Assembly (NCBI GenBank): GCA_014360895.1
Contig: JACIWQ010000001.1
Span: 16,287 to 80,286 of the forward strand
From: Thermoflexales bacterium
Lineage (GTDB): Bacteria; Chloroflexota; Anaerolineae; B4-G1; DUEL01
Direction: 5' to 3'
Length of the DNA: 64,000 nt
The notes beneath the pieces were generated by a model. The model made no database searches, had not been told where the DNA came from, and saw only the letters and a program-made list of their open reading frames with translations. A program made the position numbers and the translations under genes. Positions 8,138 to 46,799 of the stretch are shown here, one piece after another. Position 1 is the first letter of the stretch; each line of letters opens with the position of its first letter.

Positions 8138-8860
8138 TCACCGCAGAGAACGCGGAGAACGCAGAGATTCCCCCACCTCTCCCGCGCCCCCCACGGTCAG
8201 GGAGCCGCAGGCGCTCTCCACGGCCGCCCGCAGGTCGGCCTGGACGTCTTCTATGGACTGTTCGCCGTCTATCTCCACCAGCAGGCCGACCCGGCGGTAA
8301 TAGTCCACCAGCGGCGCCGTCTGCTCCTGATAGACCTTCAGACGGCGGCGGTGGGCCTCCTCGGTCTCGTCGGGACGCTGGTAGAGTTCGCCGCCGCAGG
8401 CATCGCACACCCCGGCCTTCTTCGGCGGATTGAACAGGGTATGGTAGACGGCCCCACAACTCCGGCAGGTCCACCGGCCCGCCAGACGGGCCAGGGCCAC
8501 CTCCTCCCGCACCCGGATGAAGGCCACCATATCCAGCGCGGTCCCGTTGCCCCGCAGGAGCCGCTCCAGCGCTTCCGCCTGCGCGACGGTGCGCGGGAAG
8601 CCGTCCAGGATGAAACCATTGGTGCAATCCGGGCGGGCAATCCGTTCGGCGACCATGCCGATGGTCACCTCATCGGGCACCAGGTCGCCCCGCTCCATGT
8701 AGGCCCGCGCCTGGCGGCCCAGGTCTGTTCCCTTATCCAGATGCTCCCGGAACAGGTCGCCGCTGGCGACATGCGGGACGCCCAGCGCCTGCGCCAGTTG
8801 CTCCGCCTGCGTCCCCTTGCCCGCTCCGGGCATGCCCAGAAGGACAATGCGACAGCCCAT
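8138..8860 (-). CDS. adk: Adenylate kinase (with Zn-lid CxxC...CxxC). The C-terminus reads through a 9-bp repeat.
   Basis: Start at MGCRIVLLGMPGAGKGTQ (P-loop). LID cysteines CRSCG...CDACG. The tail ...GESLRSPRSLR is encoded by the repeat at 8142-8168. Confidence 0.93.
   Translation of the reverse strand: MGCRIVLLGMPGAGKGTQAEQLAQALGVPHVASGDLFREHLDKGTDLGRQARAYMERGDLVPDEVTIGMVAERIARPDCTNGFILDGFPRTVAQAEALERLLRGNGTALDMVAFIRVREEVALARLAGRWTCRSCGAVYHTLFNPPKKAGVCDACGGELYQRPDETEEAHRRRLKVYQEQTAPLVDYYRRVGLLVEIDGEQSIEDVQADLRAAVESACGSLTVGGAGEVGESLRSPRSLR
8142..8168. repeat. 3 x 9-bp tandem repeat CGCAGAGAA/CGCGGAGAA/CGCAGAGAT. Member of the CGCAGAGAACGC element family.
   Basis: Shares the 14-mer ACCGCAGAGAACGC with 46698-46711. 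Its reverse complement resembles 17876-17907. Confidence 0.8.
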
Positions 8861-8976
8861 AGGCTCACTCCGACTCCCGGGCCAGGTCGGCCGGAGACGT
8901 AATAGCCGCAAACCGCCTGGCAATTACCCGGATGGATTCCAGGATATGTTGCAGAATATCCCGGACCAGTTCCAGG

Positions 8977-9267
8977 TCATACACAAACAGCTTCCTGGTC
9001 AATCCGCTTCTTTAGCAGCGGATTCATCCGCTCCCGGTAGCGAACCACATCTACAGGCCGTTGCAGGAGTTCCTCCAGTTCCTGCTTGATGCCCACCAGC
9101 AGCAGCAAGTCCGGCCGCTCCAGTTCCACCACCACATCCACGTCGCTCTCATCCGTGGCTTCGCCCCGGGCCCAGGAACCGAATATCCCAATCCGGGTGA
9201 TACCGAACTTTTGGGCCCTCTGGTCGCGAAACTGGGCCAGGACGCGCAGGACCTCATCTCGCCTCAT
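8977..9267 (-). CDS. Nucleotidyltransferase (MntA-like, second copy)
   Basis: GIFGSWARGEATDESDVDVVV minimal NTase motif. Start at MRRDEV, within the longer ORF. Confidence 0.7.
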   Translation of the reverse strand: MRRDEVLRVLAQFRDQRAQKFGITRIGIFGSWARGEATDESDVDVVVELERPDLLLLVGIKQELEELLQRPVDVVRYRERMNPLLKKRIDQEAVCV

Positions 9268-9305
9268 CGGACCTACCTTTTCTCTCCCCATAAAAGCCCG
9301 GCCGC

Positions 9306-9653
9306 CTACCCTTCGCCCGATGCAGTGGGAAGCAACGGCTCTACCTTCTCCAGCAAATCCGGGACATCCTTTGTGGCCGTTTTCCAGACCTCTTCCCAAT
9401 CCACAATATCGTAGCCATGAATCAGATGATCTCGCATTCCCGCAATGAGCGACCAAGGTATATCACTATGCTGATCACGAAACTCCCGAGAAAGCCGCTT
9501 GACCGCTTCCCCAATCACCAACAGTTGGTACAATACGGCCGATTGGGTTTTGATGTCGTCCAGGAAGTTCTCCTTTGCCATATCAGCAACGAAGCCCATA
9601 ATGAGACGGGCCGCTCTGGCAATATCTAGCAACGTCACTTCATCCCGATGCAT
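9306..9653 (-). CDS. HEPN-domain toxin (HepT/DUF86)
   Basis: Rx4HxY motif RDHLIHGY. Overlaps the upstream NTase gene by 14 nt. Confidence 0.75.
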   Translation of the reverse strand: MHRDEVTLLDIARAARLIMGFVADMAKENFLDDIKTQSAVLYQLLVIGEAVKRLSREFRDQHSDIPWSLIAGMRDHLIHGYDIVDWEEVWKTATKDVPDLLEKVEPLLPTASGEG

Positions 9654-9972
9654 TCATCTCCCCAGCGCTGGAAAACAGAACTCGGGCCGTTTTCAAGATT
9701 TCCTGACGACGCAACCAGTTAGGACTTCGGAGCAAAGCCCGACGGGTAATCAGGTCAATCCCCCTCTGGAAGAGCCCTTCCAATTCCCGCTGCATCTGGA
9801 TATGTTCTAAAAGTCCCCAATCCGCATCCCGCTCAAAGTCAACCAGGAAATCCAGGTCGCTATCAGGAGAGAAATCCTCCCGCAATGCAGAGCCAAAGAG
9901 AGCCAGTTCGCGGATCCTCCAGCGCCGGCAAAACTGGGCAATTTGGTCATCCGGAACCGGCAAGCTCCTCAT
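9640..9972 (-). CDS. Nucleotidyltransferase antitoxin (MntA-like). Its ATG overlaps the secY stop (ATGA).
   Basis: LFGSALREDFSPDSDLDFLVDF NTase motif. Translationally coupled to secY. Confidence 0.75.
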   Translation of the reverse strand: MRSLPVPDDQIAQFCRRWRIRELALFGSALREDFSPDSDLDFLVDFERDADWGLLEHIQMQRELEGLFQRGIDLITRRALLRSPNWLRRQEILKTARVLFSSAGEMNASG

Positions 9973-11288
9973 CGGATGAATCCCTCATAGTGCCGCATCA
10001 GCAACTGGGCCTCCAGTTGCCGCATGGTATCCACCACGACGCCGACGACGATGAGCAGTCCCGCCGAGGTAATGAGCAGCACCCGGGTGTTCATCAGTAA
10101 CTGGACGATGAAGGGCAGAACGGCGACGCCCCCCAGGAACAGTGCCCCAAACAGAGTGATGCGCTTGTAGATGCCGTTGATGTAGTCCGCCGTCTGTTTG
10201 CCGGGGCGGATGCCCGGGATAAACCCGCCGTACTTCTGCAGGTTCTCCGGCAGGTTCTGCTGCTCCACCAGCACAAAGGTGTAGAAGTACGTGAACCCGA
10301 CGACGGCGGCGAAGTAGAGCACTGCGTAGAAGATGGTGGTGTACCACTCCACGGTGTGCCCGCTGAAGAAATTCATAATGTCCGTCGCCACCCGCGCCAC
10401 GTTCGCGTTGGACGAACCGGCGAAGAACTGGGCAATGACCGCCGGAAGGGTCAACAGGGACTGGGCGAAGATGAGCGGGATCATTCCGGCCATGTTGACC
10501 CGCAGCGGGATGTAGGTGCTGCCGCCGCCGTACATCCGTCGCCCGCGCACCCGCTTGCCGTACTGCACCGGGATGCGCCGCTCCCCTTCCTGAACGTAGA
10601 CGATCACAAAGATCACCAGCGCGGTGATGATGAAGAAGAAGAGCAGGCCCAGGAAGCCATCGCTGGTGTAAATCCGCGCCACGTTGGCCGGCGTCCGGGC
10701 CACAATGCCGCCGAAGATGATGAGCGAGATGCCGTTGCCGATGCCCTGCTCGGAGATCAACTCGCCCAGCCAGATGGCGAACATGGTGCCTGCCGTCATC
10801 GCCACCAGGACCGAGAGAGTCGGCAAGACGAACTCGGCCCGATGGAAGCCGAAGTTAGGCAGGACCGGGCGCGCGGCCGCGCTGTTGAATAATTGCGCCT
10901 GTCCCCAGGCCTGCAACATCCCCAGTGGAATGGTCAGGTAGTACGTCCACTGGTTCAGTTTCCGCCGTCCGGCTTCCCCTTCCTCCTCCGCCAGCCGCTT
11001 CAGCGCCGGGATGACCGGGACCAGCAACTGGATGATGATGGACGCGTTGATGTACGGATAGACCCCGTTGGCCAGCACCGAGTACTCCGCCACCGCGCCG
11101 CCGGAGAGCAGGTCCAGAATGTTGACCAGTTGGGCCGCCCCACCGGTCAGACTGCGCAGGGCCTCCCGGTCAATGCCCGGCACCGGCACGTGAGAGGCCG
11201 CGCGGAAGATGACCAGGATCAGCAGCGTGTAGAACAACCGCCGCCGCAGGTCAGGAAGCCTCAGGGCATCACGTACGGCCTGGATCAT
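9969..11288 (-). CDS. secY: Preprotein translocase subunit SecY
   Basis: 439 aa with 10 TM segments; canonical SecY sequence. Confidence 0.95.
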   Translation of the reverse strand: MIQAVRDALRLPDLRRRLFYTLLILVIFRAASHVPVPGIDREALRSLTGGAAQLVNILDLLSGGAVAEYSVLANGVYPYINASIIIQLLVPVIPALKRLAEEEGEAGRRKLNQWTYYLTIPLGMLQAWGQAQLFNSAAARPVLPNFGFHRAEFVLPTLSVLVAMTAGTMFAIWLGELISEQGIGNGISLIIFGGIVARTPANVARIYTSDGFLGLLFFFIITALVIFVIVYVQEGERRIPVQYGKRVRGRRMYGGGSTYIPLRVNMAGMIPLIFAQSLLTLPAVIAQFFAGSSNANVARVATDIMNFFSGHTVEWYTTIFYAVLYFAAVVGFTYFYTFVLVEQQNLPENLQKYGGFIPGIRPGKQTADYINGIYKRITLFGALFLGGVAVLPFIVQLLMNTRVLLITSAGLLIVVGVVVDTMRQLEAQLLMRHYEGFIR

Positions 11289-11297
11289 TGCGACTCC

Positions 11298-11543
11298 TTA
11301 TGCAGGTATTTCTTCTGGCACGCGCCGATGAATTGGCATCAGGGCTACATTCTCCAGGATCACCTGACGCATGACATCATCCCGTCCAAATCGCTTCAGG
11401 GCATCCAGAATCTCAATCCCTGCCAGACGTCCCTCGGCATCATAGTCGGCTGCGATCCCCTCCGCCAGATGCTGTGTGGTGACTGTTGTCTCCAGGAACC
11501 GAATATACAACGCGTCCACTTCCGGATCATATGTTACTCTCAT
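11298..11543 (-). CDS. DUF2283 small protein (TA-like pair partner)
   Basis: MRVTYDPEVDALYIRF... typical DUF2283 N-terminus. Lower GC. Confidence 0.65.
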   Translation of the reverse strand: MRVTYDPEVDALYIRFLETTVTTQHLAEGIAADYDAEGRLAGIEILDALKRFGRDDVMRQVILENVALMPIHRRVPEEIPA

Positions 11544-11551
11544 AATGCCCC

Positions 11552-11806
11552 CTAAAAATAGTACGCGTACACCGTCACCACGACGATTTCATCAGCCTCT
11601 TCGGCAAAGATGGGTCGCACCTGTTTGGTGGCATAAAATTTGCCGTTCCATTCTTGCCCGAAGGGAAAGTTCTTGCGACACTCCAGCCGTCCTCGCTCTG
11701 CGGGACACCACGAGGCAGTGCGAATCGCCTCTACAACTTCTTCCTCGGTAACTCCCCGATACCGCAACTGCTCTTGGGCGTGCCCGGAAAGACGGATGGG
11801 TTTCAT
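11552..11806 (-). CDS. DUF4258 small protein (TA-like pair partner)
   Basis: MKPIRLSGHAQEQLRYRGVTEEEVVEAI... typical DUF4258. Starts 3 nt after the rplO stop. Confidence 0.65.
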   Translation of the reverse strand: MKPIRLSGHAQEQLRYRGVTEEEVVEAIRTASWCPAERGRLECRKNFPFGQEWNGKFYATKQVRPIFAEEADEIVVVTVYAYYF

Positions 11807-11809
11807 TGC

Positions 11810-12289
11810 CTATCGCGTCCGGTAGCCGCCCCGCTCCCAGGGCAACTCCTCCACGGTGCCGCCCGCGGCCTCAATCTTGGCCCGCGCGCTGGCGGAGAAG
11901 CGGTGGGCCTTCACCGTCAGCGGGACCTTCAACTCCCCGCGCCCCAGGATGACCACCCACTCGTCGGCATCCCGGATCAGGCCGGCATCCGCCAGTTCCT
12001 GCGGAGTGACCACGCTCCCCGGCGCGAACCGGGCCAACCGGTCCACGTTGACCGGCGTGAAGCGGACCCGCCAGGGATCCCGAAAGCCGACGCCCCGCGC
12101 GAAGGGCAGTTTACGGACCAGCGGCAATTGCCCGCCCTCAAAGTACGGTGGGATGCTCCCCCCGCTGCGGGCCTTCTGCCCCTTCGTCCCGCGCCCGCCG
12201 GTCTTGCCCTGACCGGCCGCGATGCCGATCCCCTTTCGCTTGTGGCGCTTCTTAGACCCCTCAGCCGGTTGCAAATCGTGCAGTTTCAT
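11810..12289 (-). CDS. rplO: 50S ribosomal protein L15
   Basis: Gly/Lys-rich N-terminus ([13 protein letters not shown]); L15 family. Confidence 0.95.
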
Positions 12290-12480
12290 CCCTCAACCTC
12301 TTCCACCTTCAACATGTGCTGGACCTTGGCCACCATCCCCCGGATGGCCGGCGTATCGGCCTTCTCCACCGTCTGATGGAGCCGCCGCAGGCCCAGCGCC
12401 CGGACCGTCGCCTTCTGGTCCCTGGAATACCCGATTGGGCTGCGAACCAGGGTGATACGGAGAACTTTCCGCTTTTCCAT
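12286..12480 (-). CDS. rpmD: 50S ribosomal protein L30
   Basis: [18 protein letters not shown]...TPAIRGMV. Start placed at the ATG with a GAGGGAG RBS rather than the upstream GTG. Confidence 0.9.
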
Positions 12481-12548
12481 TGCCTGCTCCCTCGCCACCA
12501 GTCTATCCGTTTACCGGTCTACCAGTTTACCAAATTCCCAGATACCCC

Positions 12549-13085
12549 TTACCGCCCGCGCATCCAGAACGGCATGACCCGGGTCTCCGGCAGGCCCCGC
12601 TCGCGCGCCAGGTCCTCGTAGGAGCGCAGTTGCTTCAGGGCCTCCATGGTGGCCTTCACCACGTTGAGCATGCTGGAACTGCCCATGGATTTGGTCAGCA
12701 CGTCGTGGATGCCAGCCGCCTCCAGAACGGCGCGCACGCCGCCGCCCGCGATGACGCCGGTACCCGGCGAAGCGGGCTTAATCAGCACCCGGGCACCACT
12801 GCACTCGCCAATTGCATCGTGCGGGATGGTCCGCCCCACCAGTGGGACGGTGATCATAGAGGCCCGCGCCCGCTCCGTGGCCTTGCGGATGGCGTCCGGG
12901 ACGGCGCGCGCTTTGCCCACGCCGATGCCGACGCGGCCGTTGTGGTCGCCGACGACAGCTGTCACCCGAAAGGCGAACCGGCGCCCGCCCTTGATGACTT
13001 TGGCGACCCGCTTGATCTCCACGACCCGCTCGTCCAATTCTACTGGCGCCGTGGGCTCCAGTTCAAATTCCTGATCCAGGTCCAT
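12549..13085 (-). CDS. rpsE: 30S ribosomal protein S5
   Basis: Canonical S5 ([20 protein letters not shown]). Confidence 0.95.
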
Positions 13086-13118
13086 TCGCTCCTCCGTAGT
13101 CCGTGCTCCGTACTCCGT

Positions 13119-13487
13119 TTAGAAGTCCAAACCACCTTCGCGGGCGGCGTCGGCCAGGGCCTTCACCCGACCGTGGTACTTGTATCCCGCCCGGTCAAAG
13201 GCCACCTTGGTCACTCCCCGGGCCAGGGCGCGGGCCGCCAGAACCTTCCCCACCACCCGGGCCTGCTCCGTCTTCTTCAGCCCGGCAATCTGTTCGCGGA
13301 CTTCCGGGTCCAGGGTGGAAGCGGAGACCAGCGTATGCCCCACCGTATCGTCAATCACCTGGGCGTAGATATGCCGCAGGCTGCGAAAGACGTTCAGGCG
13401 CGGACGCTCGGGCGTACCGAACACCTTCTTGCGCACATGCTTGCGTCGGCGCAGTCGTCCTAACCGGCGATCTTTTTCTGCCATCAT
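13119..13487 (-). CDS. rplR: 50S ribosomal protein L18
   Basis: L18 family sequence. Confidence 0.95.
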
Positions 13488-13502
13488 CCTCGCTCCCGAA
13501 TC

Positions 13503-14072: not shown

Positions 14073-14082
14073 CCCGTCCTCC

Positions 14083-14496: not shown

Positions 14497-14509
14497 CGGT
14501 CCGTCACCC

Positions 14510-14982: not shown

Positions 14983-14996
14983 CGGCCTGTTTCTCG

Positions 14997-15551: not shown

Positions 15552-15609
15552 CAAGATGCAAGATGGCAAGATGCAAGATGGCAAGATGCAAGATGGCAAG
15601 ATGCAAGAG
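15552..15609. repeat. Tandem array (CAAGATGCAAGATGG, 15-bp unit = 7+8) x ~3.5 in the rplX-rplE spacer
   Basis: caagatg caagatgg repeated. Generates spurious ORFs in all frames (HLAILHLAIL, DARWQDARWQ, MARCKMARCK). Confidence 0.9.
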
Positions 15610-15933: not shown

Positions 15934-15991
15934 TCTTCACCTCACGAACTACGAAATACGGAGTACGGAGTGTTGCGTATTCCGTATTCCG

Positions 15992-16363
15992 TTAGAGCAC
16001 CTCTGGTGCCAGCGAAATGATTTTCATAAAGCCCTTATCCCGCAACTCCCGGGCGACGGGCCCGAAGATGCGGGTGCCGCGCGGGTTGACGCCCGTCGCG
16101 TCCAGCAGCACCGCGGCGTTGTCATCAAAGCGGATGGTGGAGCCGTCGGGGCGCCGGTACTCTTTGGCCGTGCGGACGATGACCGCTTTAACCACGTCCC
16201 CCTTCTTCACCGACGCGTTGGGTGTGGCCTGCTTGACCGTCGCCACGATGACGTCTCCGACGTACCCGTACCGCCGCTTGGAGCCGCCCATCACCCGAAT
16301 GCACAACAGTTCTTTCGCCCCGGTGTTATCCGCTACGGTCAAACGGGTCTCCTGCTGGATCAT
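15992..16363 (-). CDS. rplN: 50S ribosomal protein L14
   Basis: [18 protein letters not shown] canonical L14. Confidence 0.95.
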
Positions 16364-16844: not shown

Positions 16845-16845
16845 G

Positions 16846-17292: not shown

Positions 17293-17559
17293 TTAAAGCG
17301 CCCGATAGACTTCTCTGCAATGACGAATATACATCACCGTAATCCGCCGCGCCTGCGTATCCACCTCGTATACAATGCGATAATCACCCACGCGAAGCCT
17401 GTACAACTGCTGTGAACCCTCCAACTTCTCCACACCTTGAGGAAAAGGGGTCTCTCCCAATTCCTCAATGCGCCTCCACACACGCTCAACGACCGACTTG
17501 GGCAAACGACGAAAATCTTTATGAACAGACGGCTTGAATTCGACGCTATAAGAGCTCAT
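17293..17559 (-). CDS. RelE/ParE-family toxin
   Basis: 88 aa ending ...QARRITVMYIRHCREVYRAL. Overlaps the upstream antitoxin gene by 14 nt. Lower GC. Confidence 0.75.
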   Translation of the reverse strand: MSSYSVEFKPSVHKDFRRLPKSVVERVWRRIEELGETPFPQGVEKLEGSQQLYRLRVGDYRIVYEVDTQARRITVMYIRHCREVYRAL

Positions 17560-17737
17560 CTTCTTTTAGCCGCCGTTTCATCTCCTCCAAACTGATCGGT
17601 TCCTCGTCCCGACGCTCCGCGATGACAGCCAAATCATGCAAATCTTCCAGCAGACGGCGATAACGTTTCAGGGAAAGAATCACGCCGATCTTTTTACCTC
17701 TCTCGTTGACCACATATCGCTCTCGCACAGTTTCCAT
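17546..17737 (-). CDS. Phd/YefM-like antitoxin
   Basis: 63 aa small acidic protein immediately upstream of the RelE/ParE gene. Confidence 0.6.
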   Translation of the reverse strand: METVRERYVVNERGKKIGVILSLKRYRRLLEDLHDLAVIAERRDEEPISLEEMKRRLKEDELL

Positions 17738-17875
17738 AAGACCCCTCTATCCAACGACTATCGTCCTGCCAGGTTATATTTCAGCCTTTCTCAAAACCCG
17801 TCAACCGTTTGCCGAGGCGCCGGGAATTCTCCCCATGGTCAGCCGGCTTCCGGCGAGATTGACAACCAGAAGAAG

Positions 17876-17907
17876 AATCCGCGTATCTCCGCGTTTATCT
17901 GCGCCCC
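17876..17907. repeat. gaatccgcgtatctccgcgtttatctgcgccc, a TCCGCGT-type repeat element
   Basis: Shares the 12-mer tccgcgtttatc with 46766-46799. Related to the reverse complement of 8142-8168. Confidence 0.7.
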
Positions 17908-18609: not shown

Positions 18610-18677
18610 AATGTCCCTCCGTTGATGATTTGAACCACCAAGACACGAAGGTGGATCATTGGTGTCTTCGTGGTAAA

Positions 18678-21890: not shown

Positions 21891-22040
21891 TCCTCCATGG
21901 GACTGTCAGCCCTGGGACAGGCTGCATCATCCCGGTGGTCAGGATGGAAGGAAACAAGAATACGAGGAGACAAGGATGCAAGGGGTAGAGGGGTGGCACG
22001 CTCCAACCCCTGCCTACTTGCCCACTTGTTTCCTTGTCTA

Positions 22041-34649: not shown

Positions 34650-36899
34650 TTACTGAACGCGAATCCGGCTCAGCAGGAGAAAGTCCCGACCGTCCTCCAG
34701 CCGAAGGCGCTCCCCCGTATCCGGTCGGTAGAGGCCGATTTCCACTTCGTAGAAGCCCGGCGGCGTCTCCGGCTTCACCCGCAGCGTGTAAGTCTCCCGG
34801 TAAACCTCTCCGGCCCGCCACTGGGATGTGGGTGGGGTCGGCGGACGGTCTTCCTGTCCCCAGATGGTCTGCGGCGGCTCCAGGATGTGGGTGAAGACGG
34901 TGTAGTCATGCTCCGTGGGGCCGAGGGCCCGCCAATAGAGGGTCAACACCACCGTCTCGCCGGGGCGCACCCGCCGGGGCACCATCTCGTACCCCACCAG
35001 TTCTATCCGGTCACCGAAGCGGTAAGAGACGGGGTTGGGGTACGGGCCGGGGCGGGGCCGAAGGGCCAGGTCCCCGAAAGAAACGTAGCGCCGGTCGTCC
35101 GGCTGCCCGGACACGGGCATCCGCTCCCAGGTGCGCAGGTCGTAGAACCCCACCCTCAGGGAAAGGCGCGCCGAAGCGACGGCGGTCTCCGGCACCCGTA
35201 GCCGGAAGACCTCCGCCCAGCGCGCCCCCGGTTGCAGTTGGGTTGCCCGGACCAGTCCCTGGCGGGGGTAACGGTCGTCCTGGGCCAGGATAATCTCCAG
35301 GTCGTCCACCAGATGGACAAAGAGGCTCCAATCCCGCGTGGGGGGACGCAGGGCTTCCAGATAGAGGGTCAGGTCTACGGTCTCCCCGGGCTCCAGGGAG
35401 GAAGGGCGGAGGCTGTAGCCCAGCAGGCGGAATTCGTCGCCGAAGGTCGCCCCCAGAGGATTGGGAACGGCCGCCGGGACGGGGAGGTCGGGGGGACGGT
35501 AGGCCGGGGCGATCCAGAGGACGGGCGCCCGCAGGGCCAGGGCTCCCAGGAAGAGGGCCGGCAGGGCCTGCAGGGCCCGTCCGATACGGCGGGATCGCCC
35601 AATGGCCAGGGCTATCTGCTCCCACCCGACCCACAGGCCCAGGGAGATGGGGCCGATGGCGGGGAACATCAGCCGCCCCTGGGAGGCCGGGGTCTGCGCG
35701 GTCCAGCGCAGGAAAGCGGCGAAGAGCACCACGACGTAGCCCAGGAGCCCCAGGCCGATGGCCCATTCTTCCCCCCAGGTGCGGGTGCGAAGCGCGCGGG
35801 CCAGCCCCCGGCCCACTCCCCACAGAAGCCCCAGGGCCGCCAGCGCGGTCCAGGCGTCCAGGACTCGGTAGACCCACACCGGCATCAGGACGTTCATCCA
35901 GCCGAAGACGCCCCAGAAGGACCAGCGGAAGCCCTGGAACTCCCGCAGGAGGTCGGCGGGAGTGGCCCGGCGCCGCCCCACGATGTCCAGCATCACGTTG
36001 AGGCCGAAGGGGTCGTGGTAGAGGGTCCAGTTGCGCCAGAACCACCAGCCGCAGAGAGCCAGAGCGACCCCGAAGGTCAGGAGGAAACCACGAAGACACG
36101 AAGACACGAAGGAAAATCTCTTTAAACTTCGTGTCTTTGCGTCTTTGTGGTAAACCCCCACCAGCGTCAGGGCGGCCAGGGGCCAGAGGGTCAGGCCGCT
36201 GAGTTTCGCCAGCGCCGCCACGCCCAACATAACCCCCAGCAGGAAGGCGCGCGGCCAGGAGACCCCCCGGCGCCAGATAACGGCCAGAACCCAGAGGCCG
36301 ACGGCGGTGGCGGTGTTGACCAGCGCGTCGTTGTTCACCGACGCGGTGACGAAAAGGAACATCGGGTTGACGGCGACCAACAGGCCGCTCCCCAAAGCCC
36401 AGCCGGGACGGTCAGGGAAGAGGAGGCGCACCCCGTTCACCGTCGCCAGGACCGTCAGCAGGCCCAGCGCTACCGAGGCCAGCCGCCAGAGATGAAGGGT
36501 AAGGACGGCGCCGTGCCAGGGGAAGGCTTCGGCGGGGCCATGTAGCACCTGGTTCCGATTGGCAATACGGGCAGCGTCGCCGGAGGAGGCGTGAGGGTTG
36601 GGGAGATAGACAGCATCCAGGTCATCCAGGGGGAGGCGAAAGAGGTGGGTGAACCCGGCCAGAAGGGCGTAGTAGAGAGGTGGCTGGCTGCCTTCCTGCC
36701 GCCAGGGCGTCTCTTCGCCGGGGCGCTGTACGGGCAGCCCCTCTCCCTGGGCCAGCCGGACCGCCATGTTGACATGATAGGTTTCGTCTGGGCATTCAAA
36801 GAGGGGATTGATCACACTGTGGAGGAGAGCCAGAATTAGGTAAAAGAACAGAAGCCAGGTTCGCCCCGAGTCAAAGAATCGGCAGGAGAGGCATCTCAT
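34650..36899 (-). CDS. GT-C glycosyltransferase, PMT/ArnT-like (GT39/GT83), paralog 1 of 3. Has two C-terminal beta-rich repeat domains.
   Basis: N-terminal loop DE motif (LFECPDETYH), 10+ TM helices, C-terminal duplicated ~110-aa domain. ATGA overlap with paralog 2. Confidence 0.8.
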   Translation of the reverse strand: MRCLSCRFFDSGRTWLLFFYLILALLHSVINPLFECPDETYHVNMAVRLAQGEGLPVQRPGEETPWRQEGSQPPLYYALLAGFTHLFRLPLDDLDAVYLPNPHASSGDAARIANRNQVLHGPAEAFPWHGAVLTLHLWRLASVALGLLTVLATVNGVRLLFPDRPGWALGSGLLVAVNPMFLFVTASVNNDALVNTATAVGLWVLAVIWRRGVSWPRAFLLGVMLGVAALAKLSGLTLWPLAALTLVGVYHKDAKTRSLKRFSFVSSCLRGFLLTFGVALALCGWWFWRNWTLYHDPFGLNVMLDIVGRRRATPADLLREFQGFRWSFWGVFGWMNVLMPVWVYRVLDAWTALAALGLLWGVGRGLARALRTRTWGEEWAIGLGLLGYVVVLFAAFLRWTAQTPASQGRLMFPAIGPISLGLWVGWEQIALAIGRSRRIGRALQALPALFLGALALRAPVLWIAPAYRPPDLPVPAAVPNPLGATFGDEFRLLGYSLRPSSLEPGETVDLTLYLEALRPPTRDWSLFVHLVDDLEIILAQDDRYPRQGLVRATQLQPGARWAEVFRLRVPETAVASARLSLRVGFYDLRTWERMPVSGQPDDRRYVSFGDLALRPRPGPYPNPVSYRFGDRIELVGYEMVPRRVRPGETVVLTLYWRALGPTEHDYTVFTHILEPPQTIWGQEDRPPTPPTSQWRAGEVYRETYTLRVKPETPPGFYEVEIGLYRPDTGERLRLEDGRDFLLLSRIRVQ
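36088..36150. repeat. 63-bp palindromic element (CACGAAGA x3 / inverted TCTTTGCG arm) embedded in-frame in GT-C paralog 1
   Basis: ccacgaagacacgaagacacgaagg-loop-cttcgtgtctttgcgtctttgtgg. AT-richer than the flanks. Encodes VYHKDAKTRSLKRFSFVSSCLRGF, which is absent from paralogs 2 and 3. Confidence 0.75.
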
Positions 36900-41042: not shown

Positions 41043-42223
41043 CCTGATATCCAGTGGATCAGAAACGCCGCTGTCTGGCGGGCGATGCGGTCCCAGGAGA
41101 AGTCGGCAGCCAGGGCCCGCGCGCCCTCCTCCAGCCGGGCCCGCAGGCCCGGGTCGCGCCAGAGCCGCAGGACCGCCTCCGCCAACGCGCCCGCATCCCG
41201 GGGCGGCGCCAGGAGCATATTCTCCCCGTCCCGCACCTCCGGCAACGGCACCGCCGGACGAGTGGTGACAATGGCCCGCCCGTGGGCCAGGCAGGCGTGC
41301 AGCGTCCCCCGCCGGAAGGAGACGCCGTCCCGGTAGGGCAGGACGCAGACATCCGTCGCCAGCAGGCCCGCCGAGACCGACAGGGGGTCGGTGTAGCCGG
41401 TCCAGTGGACCCGCTCCGTCAGCCCCAGGTCGGCGATGAGGCCGTCTATGAAGGCGGCGTAGGCCCGGTTGGTGGGGTCAGAGGTGCCCACCCGCCCGCC
41501 GACCATCAGCAGGTGGGCCGGAACGCCCCGCTCCACCAGCATGCCCAGCGCCCGGATCAATTCCTCGCCGCCCTTGCTCTCGTTGAGGAAGCCGAAGTAG
41601 CCCAGGAAGAGGTCATCGGGGCGAACGCCCCAGCGGGCCCGTTCAGCGTCCCGGTCGTAGTTCGGAGGCGGGGTCGGCGGGATATTGCTCCCGATGGGGA
41701 TCACGGCCAGGCGGTCCCGGGGAATCTCCCCCTCCAGCCGGAGGTAGTCCTCGTGGTTGGTGACGATGACGCCGTCGGCGCGGCGGGCCAGCATCCGGAC
41801 GACGCGCCAGCGCAGGGGTCCGGCCTTGGGGAAGAGATAGGGGACCCGTAGGTCGTGGAAGGTCACAACGACCGGCGGGCGCGCCAGAGGCGAGGGAAGG
41901 AAGTGGACCGCCGGGTGCATCCCGTAGGCGGCGGCCTGGTACTGGAGGTTCAGGACGTCCAGGCGCGCCTCCCGGGCCACCCGCAGGACCTCCCGCCAGC
42001 AACCCCAGCGCCAGGAGGGGACAGAGCGGTGGACGGGGAGGCTATACCGTGCTTCGTATTCCGTTTTGCGGGTGGGGCCGGTGATGACGTGGACGTCGTG
42101 ACCCAGCGCGGCCAGCGCCTCCGCCAGCCGGAGGGTGAAGTCCCCCACGCCGCCCTCATCGGGGGGAAATTCGCCGGTGACCAATCCGATGCGCATAGTG
42201 ACTCCCTGGAGGGCGCGCTTCAC
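41039..42223 (-). CDS. Glycosyltransferase family 4 (GT-B, retaining)
   Basis: Glyco_trans_1-like C-terminal half (E..GG..E.. motifs). Confidence 0.8.
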   Translation of the reverse strand: MKRALQGVTMRIGLVTGEFPPDEGGVGDFTLRLAEALAALGHDVHVITGPTRKTEYEARYSLPVHRSVPSWRWGCWREVLRVAREARLDVLNLQYQAAAYGMHPAVHFLPSPLARPPVVVTFHDLRVPYLFPKAGPLRWRVVRMLARRADGVIVTNHEDYLRLEGEIPRDRLAVIPIGSNIPPTPPPNYDRDAERARWGVRPDDLFLGYFGFLNESKGGEELIRALGMLVERGVPAHLLMVGGRVGTSDPTNRAYAAFIDGLIADLGLTERVHWTGYTDPLSVSAGLLATDVCVLPYRDGVSFRRGTLHACLAHGRAIVTTRPAVPLPEVRDGENMLLAPPRDAGALAEAVLRLWRDPGLRARLEEGARALAADFSWDRIARQTAAFLIHWISG

Positions 42224-43140
42224 CGCACCATGGCGCGCACCACCTGCCGGTATGCCCGGATGCGCTCTGCCCGCAGGGCCCGCTTATGGCCCAGGAGCCA
42301 CTTGGCCCCTTCTACGCCCATCTGCCAGAGATAGTTGCCCAGAATGACCGTCCGCAGAATCCCTGCCGCGAGCGGACCGTGGTACTTGCGGAAATAGCGG
42401 ATTTTGCTGGTCTGGAAGTGAACATGGCGGGCCGGGAGGACCTGCTCGCTGCTCTTGCCCTCGTGGTGAATCACCCGCGCGGTGGGGAGATAGACGACCC
42501 GCCAGCCGGCCTCCCGAAACCGACGGCACCAGTCCAGTTCCTCCGAGTACATGAAAAACCCCTCGTCCAGCGGCCCCACCTGCTCTACCGCCTCCCGCCG
42601 GGCCATCAGCGCCGCGCCGGTCACCCAGTCCACATCCTGAATTTCGTCGTCGGGGCGGTCCAGGATGTAGTAGTGCGTCAGCAGGCGACGGGGGGCGTAG
42701 GGCTGGAGCCAGGTGGACTCAAAGAGAGCCGTTGTCAGAGTGGGGAAGCGGCGGCGAGAGGATTGCACCGTCCCGTCGGGGTTCAGGAGTTGCGGGCCGA
42801 CGACGCCGACATCGGGGTGGGCGTCGGCGAAGGCGACCATCCGCTCCAGGGCATCCCCCACCACCTCGGTATCCGGGTTCAGCAGGAGGACGTAGCGGCC
42901 CCGGGCGACGGCCAGTCCCTGGTTGTTGGCGGCGGTGAAGCCCCGGTTGTCGGCGTTGGCAATGAGGTGCACCTGGGGAAACTCCGCCCGGACCATCTCC
43001 GCGCTCCCGTCGGTAGAGCCGTTATCCACGACGATGACCTCCAGTGAGCAGGCAGGCTGGCTGGCGAGGACGGAGTGAAGACAGCGCCGGAGCAGGTCCC
43101 GGACGTTCCAGTTGACGATGAGGACAGAGAGGTCGGGCAT
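42220..43140 (-). CDS. Glycosyltransferase family 2
   Basis: LSVLIVNWN...DNGSTDGS...NPD...D GT2 motifs. Start at MPDLSV. The ORF track's upstream extension is a translation of the 8-bp repeat. Confidence 0.85.
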   Translation of the reverse strand: MPDLSVLIVNWNVRDLLRRCLHSVLASQPACSLEVIVVDNGSTDGSAEMVRAEFPQVHLIANADNRGFTAANNQGLAVARGRYVLLLNPDTEVVGDALERMVAFADAHPDVGVVGPQLLNPDGTVQSSRRRFPTLTTALFESTWLQPYAPRRLLTHYYILDRPDDEIQDVDWVTGAALMARREAVEQVGPLDEGFFMYSEELDWCRRFREAGWRVVYLPTARVIHHEGKSSEQVLPARHVHFQTSKIRYFRKYHGPLAAGILRTVILGNYLWQMGVEGAKWLLGHKRALRAERIRAYRQVVRAMVR

Positions 43141-43142
43141 GA

Positions 43143-43177
43143 ATGAGCAAATGACAGAATGACAGAATGACAGAATG
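43143..43177. repeat. Tandem 8-bp repeat (ATGACAGA) x3-4 in the 5' leader of the GT2 gene
   Basis: atgagcaa atgacaga atgacaga atgacaga, immediately upstream of the GT2 start codon. Confidence 0.85.
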
Positions 43178-43184
43178 GCCGATG

Positions 43185-44150
43185 TCAAAACCGGCGCCGG
43201 ACGATAAAGTCGGCCAGGTCCAGAAGGGCAGTCTTGTATTCGGAGGACGGGAAGGGTCGCAGGGCCTCTTTCGCTTCCCGGATGTAGTTGCGAGCGACCT
43301 GGAGGGAGCGGTCAATGGCCGGGGAGGCTGCGACCGCCTGGACTGCTTCCCGCACCGTCAGGTCGGATGAGCCGGAGGTGAGAATCTGTCGGAGGGCCGG
43401 GTGATCGCCGCTTTGCTCCAGAAAGAGCAAGACGGGTAGCGTGACCAGTCCCTGGCGGAGGTCGCTGCCGACCGGCTTGCCCAGGGTCTGCTCGTCGGCG
43501 ACGAAGTCCAGAATGTCGTCCACGACCTGAAAGGCCAGACCCAGTTGCTCCCCGTAGGTCCGCATTGCGGCGATGGTTTCCTCGGCGGCGTGGGCCAGGA
43601 TGGCTCCCGACTCCGCCGCCAGGGCAATCAACGAGGCGGTTTTGGCGTAGATGCGCTGCTCGTATTCCTGGAAGGTGGGCACTTTCCCGCGCCCGTCAAA
43701 CATCTGGCGGATTTCGCCGTTACAGATGACCATCAGCGTCTCGGCGAACCGCTGCACCAGGCGGACGTTGGCCGTTTGGGCGACCAGATAGGCCGCCCGC
43801 GCGAAGAGGTAGTCGCCCGTCAGGACAGTGGCGGCAGGGGACCAGCGGGCGTTGAGGGTCTCCGCCCCCCGGCGCATCAGGGAGCCGTCAATGAGGTCAT
43901 CGTGGACCAGAGTGGCAGTGTGGAGCATTTCCACACCCGCGGCCGCGAAGAGGGCCACATCCGGGTCCGCCCCGCACAGGCGAGCGGAGAGGAACACCAA
44001 AGCCGGACGAAGCCGTTTACCTCCGCTCCCCAGCAGAAGTTCCACCGCGCCGGTGATCGCCGGATGCTGGTCCGGCGCGGATTCCTGTAACAGACCCTCC
44101 GCTCGCTGAAGGTCGTCCTGGATCGGGTGGAAAAAAGGCAACGATGACAC
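43185..44150 (-). CDS. Polyprenyl diphosphate synthase (trans-IPPS, IspA/IspB-like)
   Basis: Two DDxxD motifs (LVHDDLID, VVDDILD). Confidence 0.88.
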   Translation of the reverse strand: MSSLPFFHPIQDDLQRAEGLLQESAPDQHPAITGAVELLLGSGGKRLRPALVFLSARLCGADPDVALFAAAGVEMLHTATLVHDDLIDGSLMRRGAETLNARWSPAATVLTGDYLFARAAYLVAQTANVRLVQRFAETLMVICNGEIRQMFDGRGKVPTFQEYEQRIYAKTASLIALAAESGAILAHAAEETIAAMRTYGEQLGLAFQVVDDILDFVADEQTLGKPVGSDLRQGLVTLPVLLFLEQSGDHPALRQILTSGSSDLTVREAVQAVAASPAIDRSLQVARNYIREAKEALRPFPSSEYKTALLDLADFIVRRRF

Positions 44151-44232
44151 AGACGGTCTCCGGAATGGGGGATACCATGCGGCGTCCGGCGGGAGGTCCG
44201 CCGTCCGCTGGCATCATTATGCCATTTTCCAA

Positions 44233-44985
44233 CTACTCCGTCAAGTGAGCCCGCTGGCGGTCATACAGCCCGGCTCGTCCATTGCGGCGGATGCGGACGA
44301 CCTCCCAGAACATGTTCCAGGAATCCCGCAGGGGACTGACCCGGCTACCTTCTCCGTAGTACCAGTCAATGGGAACCTCCACGATGCGGTAACCGCGCCG
44401 TCGGGCGATGTAGAGCACTTCCACATCAAACGCCCAACCGTCCAGTATTTGCACGGAGAAGAGGTCGCGCGCCACCTCCCGGCGGAAGCACTTGAAGCCG
44501 CATTGGGTATCCTGGATGCCCGGCACCGCCAGAACGCGCACCACAGTGTTGAAGACGCGCCCCATCAGGTGGCGGTACCCGGGTTCGTTGAACCGGCGCG
44601 CGCCCGGGGCTTCGCGGGAGGCGATAGCGACGTCGTAGTCGGAGAGGGCCGGGGGGAGAAATCGGGACACCTGTTCAATGGGCATCGCCAGGTCGGCATC
44701 GCAGATGAAGAGATACTCTCCCCGCCCCTCCAGCATCCCCTTCCGCACTGCCGCCCCCTTCCCCCGAATGGGCTGGTAGAGCAGGGAGACAATGGGATGT
44801 TCGGCCGCGACCGCCCGGACGACCTCCGCCGTCCGGTCGGTGCTGGCGTTATCCACCACCAGGACCTCCACCGGATACGCCTGCGCCTCGGCGAAGGCGA
44901 CGACCTGCGGGAGGGTGGTTGGCAGGCGATGCTCTTCGTTGTAGGCCGGGATGATGATGGTCAGCAGCGGCAATGGTTCGGCCAT
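44233..44985 (-). CDS. Polyprenol-phosphate hexosyltransferase (Dpm1/Ppm1/GtrB-like GT2, soluble form)
   Basis: IIIPAYNEE...DNASTDRT...DADL...GFK GT2 family 2 motifs. TAATG overlap with the upstream thioredoxin gene. Confidence 0.8.
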   Translation of the reverse strand: MAEPLPLLTIIIPAYNEEHRLPTTLPQVVAFAEAQAYPVEVLVVDNASTDRTAEVVRAVAAEHPIVSLLYQPIRGKGAAVRKGMLEGRGEYLFICDADLAMPIEQVSRFLPPALSDYDVAIASREAPGARRFNEPGYRHLMGRVFNTVVRVLAVPGIQDTQCGFKCFRREVARDLFSVQILDGWAFDVEVLYIARRRGYRIVEVPIDWYYGEGSRVSPLRDSWNMFWEVVRIRRNGRAGLYDRQRAHLTE

Positions 44986-45416
44986 TATGGCTCCTGTGAT
45001 CCAGCGACGGCGGCCCGGATGGCCGCCCGGTCGGGCAGACCGGCCTGGGCATAGACCACCTGTCCCCCCCCGTCAAAGACGATGAAGGTGGGGACGGCGC
45101 TCACGCCGTACTCCCGGGCCAGGGTCAGGCCGGCCTGACTCATCACGTCAATCCGCAGCACCTTCGCGGTTCCGCCCAGTTCCTTCTCTAACCTGTCCAC
45201 GGCAGGTTTGGCCATCAGGCAGGCGCTTCAGGTGTTGGAGAAGAACTCCACCGCGACAGGCCGCCCGCCGCGAATCTCCTGCCGAAAAGCTTCCACAGAG
45301 AGGTCATCGGCGGGAGTCCGCAGGAAGAGCCAGCTCCCCACCAGCAGGCCGAGCACCAATAGAAGCGCCCAGTTCTGCCGGAGCAGGTCGTAGAGCATAT
45401 ACCCGATAGCGTTCAC
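44985..45416 (-). CDS. Membrane-anchored thioredoxin-fold protein with an in-frame TGA at the first Cys of CxxC. Either a selenoprotein (UxxC) or a disrupted gene.
   Basis: Track ORFs 45228..45416 and 44985..45215 are in the same frame, separated only by TGA plus 4 codons (SACL). Joined sequence: ...RPVAVEFFSNT[TGA]SACLMAKP...VPTFIVFDGGGQVV = Trx fold with a cis-Pro. ATGA and TAATG overlaps with the neighbouring genes. Confidence 0.5.
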
Positions 45417-45994
45417 TTTTCTCCTTCCATCAGCCGAAAGATGCCCAGCGCGCGGGTCTCCTCTCGCCGGAGGTGAAACCCCGCCCGTCGGACGCTCCGG
45501 ACCGTCTCCCGGTTCAGGTGACAGACGCCGTTCCAGGCAAACCAGAGGGGATGAAGGCGGTCCGTCAGCCAGGCCCCCAGGCCCCGCCCCCGGGTGTGCT
45601 CCAGGAGGAGCAGACGGCCGCCGGGCCGGAGGACCCGGTAGACCTCTCCCAGGGCCCGCTCCGGCTCGGCGACGGAGCAGAAGACCAGGGAGCCCGTCAC
45701 CGCGTCAAAGGCGCCGTCCCGGAAAGGGAGGCGGTGCACGTCGGCCCGGACGGCCCGGACGCGGGCGCGGGTCGTCCGGCGCAGGGCCCGCCGGAGCATC
45801 GGGGCGCTGAGGTCCAGCGCGATGACAGCCGTCGTCGGGGGATAGAGGGGGAGGTTGACGCCGGTGCCGACGCCCACCTCCAGCACGCGCCCTTCCACCT
45901 GCGGGAAGGCGCGCCGCCGCATCTGCCGCAGAACCGCCATCTCCAGCGGCAGGAGGCCCAGGTCGTATCCGGAGGCCAGCGCGTCAAAGACCAT
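45413..45994 (-). CDS. Class I SAM-dependent methyltransferase
   Basis: VLEVGVGTGVN motif I; UbiE/COQ5-like. Confidence 0.8.
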   Translation of the reverse strand: MVFDALASGYDLGLLPLEMAVLRQMRRRAFPQVEGRVLEVGVGTGVNLPLYPPTTAVIALDLSAPMLRRALRRTTRARVRAVRADVHRLPFRDGAFDAVTGSLVFCSVAEPERALGEVYRVLRPGGRLLLLEHTRGRGLGAWLTDRLHPLWFAWNGVCHLNRETVRSVRRAGFHLRREETRALGIFRLMEGEK

Positions 45995-46008
45995 AGGATG
46001 CAGGAAAT

Positions 46009-46037
46009 GTAGGACAACTGCTCGCAGTTGTCCTACC
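46009..46037. repeat. Perfect 13-bp inverted repeat GTAGGACAACTGC-tcg-GCAGTTGTCCTAC
   Basis: Hairpin between the vapC stop and the methyltransferase start. No U-tract. Confidence 0.6.
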
Positions 46038-46086
46038 GCAGGAGTTTCGCGACGAACGATGGGAATGTCCCCCGCAGAACCTCCAG

Positions 46087-46452
46087 TTAAACCCTGTATG
46101 GGACCCGAATGCCTTCCCAGTCGGGAGCGAAATCCTTCGTGTTACGGGTGACCAAGACGGCGCTATAGAGTTGGGCTGTAGCCCAGATTATGGCGTCCGG
46201 TAAACGAAGGCGGCGATACTGTCGGCGAATGTCTACTGCTTTCTCAGCCACCGCAAAGTCCACCGGGACGATCTCAAAATAGGTTTGCAGGAAATCGCGC
46301 ACCTCTTCCTCATTCTCTCCAGCGCCGACCAGAGTCTCTATCCACGTAACGAGACTGATTAAAACACGGTCGTATCGGCGATATTCTGCGTCGGCCTCTG
46401 GAAGGCCGTTGAGGGCGTCTATCACGATGTTCGTATCAAACAGAGCGTTCAT
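46087..46452 (-). CDS. vapC: PIN-domain toxin VapC
   Basis: MNALFDTNIVID...D...TRN PIN acidic residues. Confidence 0.8.
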   Translation of the reverse strand: MNALFDTNIVIDALNGLPEADAEYRRYDRVLISLVTWIETLVGAGENEEEVRDFLQTYFEIVPVDFAVAEKAVDIRRQYRRLRLPDAIIWATAQLYSAVLVTRNTKDFAPDWEGIRVPYRV

Positions 46453-46673
46453 TCCTCACGCTCCCATTCCGAGCGAAGTTGTTCCTGAAATTCCAGTGCA
46501 TCTATGCCCCGTCCTTTCCACGAGCCGAAAGCCGGGTGATCCTTCAACGAGCGGCGTGAAGGAACCCGCGCCGATAATTGCCGTCGGAGGAAGAGAATGA
46601 AATCCAGGACCTCGCTCTGTTTCTCCGGCGGCAAGTGTACCACCTCTTTCTGAATCTGCTCCAGCAGGCTCAT
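46449..46673 (-). CDS. VapB-like antitoxin
   Basis: 74-aa small protein overlapping vapC by 4 nt. Confidence 0.6.
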   Translation of the reverse strand: MSLLEQIQKEVVHLPPEKQSEVLDFILFLRRQLSARVPSRRSLKDHPAFGSWKGRGIDALEFQEQLRSEWEREE

Positions 46674-46697
46674 CGTTACCTCCCTTTTTCGGGTTCA

Positions 46698-46799
46698 ACC
46701 GCAGAGAACGCAAAGGACACAGAGAAAATTCCCATAATCACCTTTGCGTCCTTTGCGATGAGAAAATCCGCGTTTATCCGCGTCCATCCGCGTCCATCC
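46698..46799. repeat. Composite repeat: a palindromic CGCAGAGAACGCAAAGGACACAGAG...CCTTTGCGTCCTTTGCG element followed by (TCCGCGTnnA) x3
   Basis: Shares ACCGCAGAGAACGC with 8142, tccgcgtttatc with 17876, and tttgcgtc(c)tttg with 36131-36148. Overlaps the uvrA stop. Confidence 0.75.

Follow-up and report, generated by a model that had tools for sequence, protein, structure and literature searches.

Repetitive extragenic palindromic (REP) sequences, REPINs and their RAYT genes are the nearest working model for the repeats that we describe here. According to two accounts, REP and REPIN sequences are short extragenic palindromes that lie mostly downstream of coding regions, with some intragenic copies, and contain G·T or G·U pairs that suggest action as RNA, and RAYT is a single protein gene that stands between two inverted repeats (PMC3733652; PMC3337134). 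In a 64,000-nt stretch of DNA from a Thermoflexales bacterium (Chloroflexota; contig JACIWQ010000001.1, positions 16,287 to 80,286), which we call the window, at least eight loci belong to one family of hairpins or single arms, in which CGCAGAGAA-type units of 8-10 nt, repeated about three times in tandem, make up an arm. In other bacteria a gene for a GxxExxY protein lies between the same two arms, and we therefore read the window copies, with a probability of roughly 0.55, as cargo-less members of a palindromic family, similar to REPINs or to miniature inverted-repeat transposable elements (MITEs), that are non-autonomous derivatives of a GxxExxY cassette.

The window family resembles REP/REPIN sequences in being extragenic and downstream of genes with some intragenic members, in its G·U pairs, and in having a form in which a gene lies between inverted repeats. 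It differs from REPs in that it has no GTAG/CGTC tag (PMC3733652) and ends instead in TTCAC/TTAAC/CTCAC ... GTGAA/GTTAA, and in that its stems of ~25-30 bp consist of three tandem 9-mers with loops of up to hundreds of nucleotides, whereas REP stems have 5-13 bp and loops of 2-20 nt (PMC3733652, Table 1). The gene between the arms is GxxExxY/PDDEXK_3 and not the HUH/Y1 transposase of RAYTs, and the arm sequence is common to several phyla, whereas REP families are lineage-specific. With MITEs the family shares terminal inverted repeats, small size, lack of coding sequence and multiple copies (eight loci in 64 kb here, 12 arms in 13 kb of the contig L210 described below). A longer form with the same ends exists, whose only gene encodes a 125-150-aa GxxExxY protein, and no parent element with a DDE transposase is known. 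The inverted repeats are themselves tandem repeats, and the three comparisons of filled and empty sites revealed no target-site duplication.

Four particular kinds of small element deserve comparison. Correia/NEMIS elements of Neisseria, which are MITEs, resemble the family in being small, non-coding, multicopy and bounded by inverted repeats, in lying near genes and being co-transcribed, and in having stems long enough for RNase III. Rickettsia palindromic elements insert in frame into protein genes and are not built from tandem units; the copy at 36087-36151 and the C-terminal extensions of adk and uvrA resemble them in adding peptide segments, but the sequence and host range are unrelated, most copies here are intergenic, and the arms are made of tandem units. 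Intervening sequences of 23S rRNA likewise place a small open reading frame (ORF) in the loop of a long-range stem that belongs to a larger transcript, but their stem lies in an rRNA helix and the ORF encodes a four-helix-bundle protein, whereas the stems described here lie between or end protein genes and carry GxxExxY. The short tandemly repeated repetitive (STRR) sequences of cyanobacteria and the TAACTGA repeats of Beggiatoaceae are spacer arrays of tandem 7-10-nt units that occur in ribosomal-protein operons, among other places, and at start codons, are patchy across phyla with no known transfer mechanism, and are direct, with almost no inverted copies (PMC4679880); the typical form here, in contrast, is an inverted pair with conserved flanks and an occasional gene cargo.

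Results

The unit core of the arm is CRCNRAG, with CGCAGAGAA as its canonical form. Two inverted arms pair into a stem of ~25-30 bp (~20-30 bp in the window) with a small mismatch at each unit boundary, and outside the repeats the arms are flanked by ...(T)TCAC or TTAAC-C on the 5' side and by G-GTGAA or GTTAA on the 3' side. The window has a GC content of 63% and contains ribosomal-protein operons at 2-23 kb; because nearly all genes up to ~50 kb lie on the minus strand, every element is read on that strand, which we call the sense strand (Table 1). All window copies are without cargo, being either short-loop hairpins or single arms. They stand within a few bases of stop codons after adk, uvrA, rplV, rpsC and the ORF that ends at 1808, and the upstream ORF sometimes reads through the element, as for adk and uvrA; one further copy lies in frame inside a membrane glycosyltransferase.

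Three of these loci had been grouped in an original prediction as a dispersed miniature repeat family at gene junctions, which is borne out by additional copies in the window, in sister genomes and in distant lineages. The two exact words on which it drew are present as described, ACCGCAGAGAACGC being identical at 8140-8153 and 46698-46711 and TCCGCGTTTATC at 17888-17899 and 46767-46778. Single words are only marginal against chance, with the observed counts reached in 1 of 100 shuffles (ACCGCAGAGAACGC) and 2 of 100 (TCCGCGTTTATC), so we adopted a unit-based test in which an arm was defined by CRCNRAG cores at 8-10-nt spacing and the null model consisted of 200 first-order Markov simulations. 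Four arms with at least three cores were observed versus none in the 200 simulations, and eight with at least two cores versus a simulated mean of 0.6; the repeat observation is confirmed as real. A recurrent protein motif is not the source of the shared words: the majority of copies lie outside coding sequence, and one arm base-pairs with the other. The earlier survey had overlooked the hairpins at 781-860 and 18634-18674, the arm at 1779-1807, the hairpin anatomy of the adk copy, and many repeats with unrelated units at junctions of the same operon.

Table 1. Coordinates of the repeat family and of other features in the window; sequences of the family members and of the junction repeats are given on the sense strand, and repeats were called with Tandem Repeats Finder (TRF) where stated
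Feature	Position	Strand	Sequence or content	Basis
Complete hairpin	781..860	minus	CTCGC-CGCGGAGA CGCCGAGAG CGCAGGG, 24-nt loop, CTTTGCGTG TTCTGCGT CTCGGCG-GTGAA	
Single GA-type arm, ~10-nt period	1779..1807	minus	CGCGAAGGGC CGCAAAGGCT GCGAAAGGCA	TRF, regular expression
Complete hairpin, adk-map, 62 nt	8138..8199	minus	5' arm CGUGGGGGG CGCGGGAGAGG; 3' arm UCUCUGCGU UCUCCGCGU UCUCUGCG-GUGAA	
Single GA-type arm, three 10-nt units	17875..17903	minus	CGCAGATAAA CGCGGAGATA CGCGGATTC	Sequence, word match
Small hairpin, rplV-rpsC junction	18634..18674	minus	TTTAC-CACGAAGA CACCAA, loop, CTTCGTGT CTTGGTG-GTTCAA	Regular expression
Near-perfect hairpin, 8-nt units	36087..36151	minus	CACGAAGA x3 / inverted	Inverted repeat, 25 nt, 88% complementary
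Complete hairpin after uvrA	46694..46764	minus	CGCAAAGGA CGCAAAGG, loop, UCUCUGUG UCCUUUGCG UUCUCUGCG-GUUGAAC	
Direct array, 10-nt units	46766..46799	minus	GGATGGACGC x2, GGATAAACGC, GGATTTTCTC	TRF, 3.4 x 10 nt
17-nt inverted repeat	757-773/862-878		TGAGTCCATTGCAAAAA / TTTTTGCAGTAGAGTCA	
Terminator-like hairpin	1736-1773			
Junction repeats with unrelated units	3434-3492, 5992-6028, 12497-12532, 13092-13118, 15552-15608, 15944-15992, 21910-22040, 43141-43177		Direct units: ATCACGY x8, TTTCACG x5, GGTAAACT x4, ACGGAGT x4, CATCTTG(C) x8, CATTCTGT x4; hairpin forms: ACGGAAT/ACTCCGT, CAAGGAAA-type	TRF
Two-gene modules	6720-7353, 8977-9972, 11298-11806, 17293-17737		DUF4160/DUF2442; MNT/HepT + second MNT; DUF4258/DUF2283; RelB-like/ParE	
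tRNA gene	55363-55437	minus		Rfam
Perfect 17-bp hairpin	55314-55352			

The SecY protein of the window is 96-97% identical to those of three Anaerolineae metagenome-assembled genomes (L001, L002 and L003), and the coding DNA is ~90% identical to that of L001 and L003, yet the junctions between genes are not conserved. At the adk-map junction, the sequence at 8142-8168 that had been described as a 3 x 9 repeat is indeed tandem (TRF gives 8142-8167, 2.9 x 9 nt), but it is not a lone repeat; it is the 3' arm of the complete hairpin at 8138-8199. The 5' arm has drifted by A to G changes to a G-rich sequence that still pairs with the U-rich 3' arm via G·U, and these pairs carry the difference between the strands, the fold having -39.1 kcal/mol (z -5.8) in sense and -14.2 kcal/mol (z -1.75) in antisense. 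The ORF of adk (8138..8923, minus) reads through the repeat, as had been noticed, and indeed through the whole element, and terminates ...GESLRSPRSLR*. Its UGA stop and the AUG of map both lie where the stem begins and ends, at its foot (GGUGAAAUG), and map shows no Shine-Dalgarno sequence of its own; we infer that translation of map is coupled to termination of adk. In the L003 ortholog this hairpin recurs, flanked by a canonical CTCAC, and adk stops in the loop. In L001 the element is absent, adk stops ~21 codons earlier, and the spacer holds unrelated TTACC-type 8-mers.

Downstream of uvrA, the direct array of 10-mers encodes the last eight residues of UvrA and contains the stop codon (46774-46776), in agreement with the overlap reported before. 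It lies upstream of a hairpin of 9-nt units, which precedes the Shine-Dalgarno sequence and start codon of a VapB-like gene. That 46698-46757 is palindromic was verified by an inverted-repeat search and by folding (sense -45.8 kcal/mol, z -4.0; antisense -33.7 kcal/mol, z -3.7 for 46694-46764). The 'gaaaat' loop had been likened to that of the 36087-36151 hairpin, and the start of the loop is shared; it is, however, an A-rich continuation of the last unit that is common throughout the family. Comparison with sister genomes reveals three states of this site. It is empty in L205, where uvrA and a methyltransferase gene overlap. L201 and L202 carry a 10-mer array, related to ours in L201, and a canonical hairpin, CTCAC-CGCGGAGGA CGCAAAGG ... 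TCTCTGTG TTCTCTGCG CTTTCAGCG-GTTAAA, directly before the methyltransferase ATG and with no VapBC. The window has the same element with a VapBC-like pair inserted after the hairpin. Because of this series, the association with toxin-antitoxin (TA) modules that had been proposed is secondary, and the modules are neighbors of the repeats, not partners.

The hairpin at 36087-36151 lies in frame inside a 749-aa DUF2142/ArnT-like membrane protein (34650-36899), encodes ...YHKDAKTRSLKRFSFVSSCLRG... and folds well on the two strands (z -7.8 and -9.4). Among 25 orthologs compared, only the three closest have the insert and the other 22 lack it, and in a DNA alignment with L203, L201 and L205 it keeps the frame despite a 15-nt difference in loop length. 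L203 has three-unit arms after two stop codons at which the window has none. The hairpin between rplV and rpsC has two units per arm in the window (-28.6 kcal/mol) versus three in the L003 ortholog (-38.2 kcal/mol). Differences of this kind between sister species are to be expected if an element can be acquired or lost and can change in size.

The same arm is found far outside this lineage. A scan of metagenomes with CGCRGAGAACGCRGAGAACGC returned at least 120 stretches on contigs that range in GC content over 30-73% and stem from soil, sediment and water samples; the counts that we give for metagenome copies are among the matches listed. The common anatomy is (T)TCAC or TTAAC, C, three CGCAGAGRA, a loop, three TYCTCTGCG, and G-GTGAA or G-GTTAA. 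Exactly three units make up 94 of 125 arms, the loops measure 8-806 nt (median 58), the five bases that adjoin the repeats on one side show 75% complementarity to those on the other, and the 'AC' 5' flank stands before 66 of 120 arms. We rejected raw hit counts as evidence for a family, because 9-mers also occur as coding repeats; two permuted 9-mers that served as controls gave 58 and 16 hits on viral contigs versus 28 for the real unit. Only the inverted-partner and flank anatomy discriminates, since the permuted controls lack inverted partners: a partner core in inverted orientation is no more than 200 nt away in 54 of 120 metagenome cases and in 8 of 28 viral-contig hits, against 2 of 58 and 0 of 16 for the two controls. 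As assessed from filtered gene calls, 22 of 39 metagenome hairpins adjoin the 3' end of a gene, in most cases at a distance of 3-30 nt from its stop codon, and five of the 39 adjoin only a gene start. Some metagenome copies have A-runs before the stem and T-runs after it.

When the arm was compared with plasmid sequences by BLAST, most hits were weak ones in Streptomyces, and copies were also found in Gemmatirosa, Bacteroides and Oscillatoria. Complete hairpins are present in records of Gemmatirosa kalamazoonensis (Gemmatimonadota) and Bacteroides finegoldii (Bacteroidota), in the latter between a major facilitator superfamily transporter gene and pheS; the Oscillatoria plasmid has a single arm only. 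Rfam, at gathering and E-value thresholds, gave nothing relevant, its only matches being a tRNA and, elsewhere, a thiamine pyrophosphate riboswitch; weak sub-threshold miRNA hits overlap the hairpin of L206. No description of the element was found in open-access literature, and it has the appearance of a mobile element not described before, rather than of a TA feature.

Arms also occur in more elaborate arrangements. In L210, an IMG/VR contig of 60% GC, twelve three-unit CGCAGAGAA arms lie on one strand within 13 kb (1051-13079); they have no inverted partners, (G)GAATTAAC stands before every one of them, and each comes shortly after the stop of an opposite-strand gene. Single arms are strongly oriented in the L210 lineage. 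Four metagenome contigs (L085, L110, L138 and L150) contain arms within higher-order repeats, such as the ~100-nt units of L085, each with an arm, and the nested sets of L150, in which three 5' arms and then three 3' arms stand beside a GxxExxY gene.

PDDEXK_3 is the only recurrent family among the 52 neighbor proteins of the metagenome copies, and a GxxExxY gene lies between or next to the arms in 7 of 120 loci. The loop of such a cassette measures 386-423 nt and the enclosed gene may point in either direction; the cargo proteins have 125-150 aa and a PD-(D/E)XK nuclease fold, and match TIGR04256 'GxxExxY protein' with E values of 1e-33 to 1e-40. Starting from the gene, we took five GxxExxY genes from PLSDB records, two of which are enclosed by CACAGAG-type arms. 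One is from Bacteroides finegoldii, between radA and a gene for an FAD protein, and the other from Bernardetia, between the genes for adenine deaminase and mannose-1-phosphate guanylyltransferase. The Gemmatirosa gene, whose neighbors are not annotated, has a complete hairpin downstream and the end of a second arm ~120 nt upstream; that of Sphingomonas parapaucimobilis, between fabD and fabG, has a short 5' arm-like stretch upstream only; and that of Prevotella, among hypothetical genes, has different repeats. Single-gene GxxExxY inserts between housekeeping genes form a pattern typical of a selfish cassette.

Three further members complete the family in the window. The hairpin at 781-860, which matches the regular expression for the arm, occupies a spacer upstream of a gene on the minus strand and folds with -41.6 kcal/mol (z -4.3) in sense and -33.0 kcal/mol (z -1.8) in antisense. 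Because a 17-nt inverted repeat encloses it (Table 1), the element sits within another palindrome of unrelated sequence, possibly a hairpin that was there before and was used as an insertion site. The arm at 1779-1807 begins directly after the stop of a 133-aa ORF (1808-2209), precedes an ordinary terminator-like hairpin, and has no fold of its own (z +0.6). The arm at 17875-17903 lies 25 nt past the rpsC stop and upstream of the RelB-like/ParE cassette, which together with the spacer is absent from L003. It has GATAAACGCGGA in common with the uvrA array; its membership is the weakest of the family because its fold is not significant (z -1.6).

Discussion

We rank a mobile, cargo-less palindromic family first because no other reading explains all of five features: arms of three units in inverted pairs, with flanks that are conserved and complementary; an arm that is the same in different phyla and at different GC contents; orthologous sites that are filled in some genomes and empty in others; copies that are in frame or overlap stop codons; and an enclosed gene with a nuclease fold. 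Such elements would move or be copied with the GxxExxY nuclease acting in trans, after which slippage would change the number and the sequence of the units locally. Within operon mRNA the stem would form an RNA hairpin that serves as a 3'-end barrier or processing site or, at adk-map, keeps the translation of map tied to the termination of adk. The stronger sense folds in three of the four larger CRCNRAG hairpins (781-860, 8138-8199 and 46694-46764) and the G·U-only decay at adk-map argue that the stems matter as RNA. Their role may be that of a 3'-end barrier, an RNase III site or a coupling device, and the evidence does not separate these. The family is best classed with elements of the palindromic-repeat/MITE kind, and a link to the GxxExxY cassette is plausible.

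Several observations weigh against this reading. Movement is deduced from presence and absence only, and deletion could explain some of the empty sites. Target-site duplications, for which the original prediction had suggested looking, are absent from the uvrA, adk and glycosyltransferase comparisons, as is a conserved target, although the boundaries are blurred by divergence and the negative is a weak one. Neither the window nor any Thermoflexales locus examined contains a GxxExxY gene, so a trans-acting source in this genome is hypothetical. Under a strict definition, a clear partner arm within 1.5 kb accompanies 49 of 125 metagenome arms, and some metagenome matches are coding RRE-type repeats inside long ORFs. 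The neighboring metagenome genes come from crude gene calls, single arms showed no consistent orientation relative to genes, and the evidence from named organisms is a few PLSDB records. Active local slippage at junctions of the same operon could explain part of the pattern.

A different account, which we consider unlikely, holds that the hairpins are immobile cis-acting RNA structures under selection in the host (intercistronic stabilizers, RNase III stems, terminators or attenuators) that are similar through a shared trans-acting factor. It accommodates the strong folds with G·U pairs on the sense strand, which exceed the antisense folds by 8-25 kcal/mol in three of the four larger hairpins (781-860, 8138-8199 and 46694-46764, not 36087-36151), as well as the placement 3-30 nt past stop codons, the persistence of a hairpin at a given junction across sister species in spite of sequence change, and the A- and T-runs that flank some metagenome copies as in bidirectional terminators. 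Intrinsic terminators, however, have a U-tract immediately after a GC-rich stem; the window copies lack the U-tract, although some metagenome copies do have T-runs, the adk copy runs on into AAAUG of map, and no terminator-like site was found at 45900-46900. Copies in frame inside coding regions, the empty orthologous site of L205 with its overlapping genes and no structure, and the lack of an Rfam family match also speak against selection on an immobile structure, and a conserved factor would leave the nuclease gene within the loop unaccounted for.

Still less probable, in our view, is that each junction acquired its repeats independently as locally generated simple-sequence repeats (of the LSSR, or long simple-sequence repeat, and STRR type) by slippage, through a common mutational or compositional bias and with neither mobility nor function. 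An excess of heptamers and an origin by slippage are established for bacterial LSSRs, as the summary of Mrazek 2007 in PMC4679880 has it, and Chloroflexus carries (GATAGRA)n satellites (PMC6749651). Many junctions of the same operon do carry tandem repeats of differing units, species with ~90% identity in their coding DNA differ in copy number and even in the unit itself, and head-to-tail units of varying copy number are evident in the TRF arrays and in the two versus three units at rplV-rpsC. An independent local origin, however, leaves unexplained the inverted partner arms and their fixed three-unit length (94 of 125), the conserved and mutually complementary flanks outside the repeats, the same 27-nt arm at 30-73% GC in several phyla, and the GxxExxY gene between the arms; repeats of the permuted 9-mers, moreover, have no inverted partners. 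Slippage clearly acts on top of the mobile family by altering the number of units and probably alters their sequence as well, so that variants of 8, 9 and 10 nt arise.

The junction repeats with unrelated units (Table 1) are tandem repeats of 7-8 nt that fill many other junctions, mostly in ribosomal-protein operons; ATCACGC, TTTCACG, CATCTTG, GGTAAACT and TGTCATTC come from the same operon. Some abut start codons that have no visible Shine-Dalgarno sequence, and sister species have different units or none at these junctions. Downstream of a 133-aa ORF (3499-3900), for example, L001 has a (GCAGATT)3/(ATCTGCA)5 hairpin and L003 has nothing. A single sequence-specific RNA-binding protein for all junction repeats was rejected, as the units are without a common motif and occur in both orientations. 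Heptamer and octamer repeats, often as inverted pairs such as GTTGGAA / AACTTCT and GGTATAA / CTTATAC, are found at junctions in seven other Anaerolineae ribosomal-protein loci from several lineages and are absent from most of the 80 Anaerolineae loci, so that the trait is patchy within the class.

Very little probability attaches to integron-type attC sites that would mark gene cassettes, the TA pairs being those cassettes. Imperfect palindromes do stand at the boundaries of cassettes, small cassettes are inserted beside two copies, and the uvrA copy at 46694-46764 ends in GTTCAAC...GTTGAAC, which fits the R''/R' boxes RYYYAAC/GTTRRRY. The commonest family ends, TTCAC...GTGAA, do not fit and break the conserved AAC/GTT triplet, however, and the arms are tandem repeats, unlike attC. 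No integrase adjoins any copy seen and there is no array of sites in the same orientation, the neighbors being ribosomal-protein genes, adk, map, uvrA and a methyltransferase gene; the cargo, furthermore, lies inside one split hairpin, and no pair of like-oriented attC sites encloses it.

Although two of the three loci first noted lie upstream of TA cassettes, and ribbon-helix-helix repressors have heptad operators that resemble direct or inverted arrays of 7-10-bp units, we dismiss as scarcely credible the proposal that an antitoxin of the adjoining module, of the ribbon-helix-helix or Phd type, binds the repeats as an operator or as a centromere-like array; this proposal is largely refuted by the uvrA hairpin of L201 with no TA module, and against it also stand the copies that adjoin adk/map or rplV/rpsC or lie inside the glycosyltransferase, the position of the 17875-17903 array ~100 nt upstream of, and not overlapping, the promoter-like TTGACG...TATAAC seen by eye at its cassette, and the absence of TA families from the 25 most frequent Pfam families of the 52 neighbor proteins of metagenome copies.

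The ribosomal-protein/secY/adk/map operon is broken by four two-gene modules (Table 1), several of which are recent insertions into an essential operon, since they are absent from L001 and/or L003 at these places. A tRNA gene is the only Rfam match in the window, and a perfect 17-bp hairpin stands beside it.

Conclusions

A wider proposal, which we put forward tentatively and at somewhat less than even odds, is that of a hitherto unrecognized cross-phylum mobile system in which a small GxxExxY PD-(D/E)XK nuclease gene occupies the loop of a long-range hairpin with arms of three tandem 9-mers. Such a system would insert at the ends of housekeeping genes (radA, fabD-fabG, ribosomal-protein operons) and leave abundant cargo-less hairpins, as a functional analogue of REPIN-RAYT that relies on another enzyme fold, and in operon mRNAs these hairpins would also act as signals for RNA processing or stability.

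If this is true, the large and uncharacterized GxxExxY protein family would gain a context relevant to its function, and a class of palindromic repeat would be recognized that neither Rfam nor annotation pipelines flag. Its copies range from gut Bacteroides to hot-spring Chloroflexota. They alter genes directly, through the C-terminal extensions of Adk and UvrA and the in-frame insert in the membrane glycosyltransferase, and place 25-30-bp RNA stems inside essential operons. How a palindrome spreads with no classical transposase and what it does to operon mRNA would become questions for culturable hosts. For the window itself, the repeats are real and are not a TA feature, and the ends of nearby genes should not be taken at face value.

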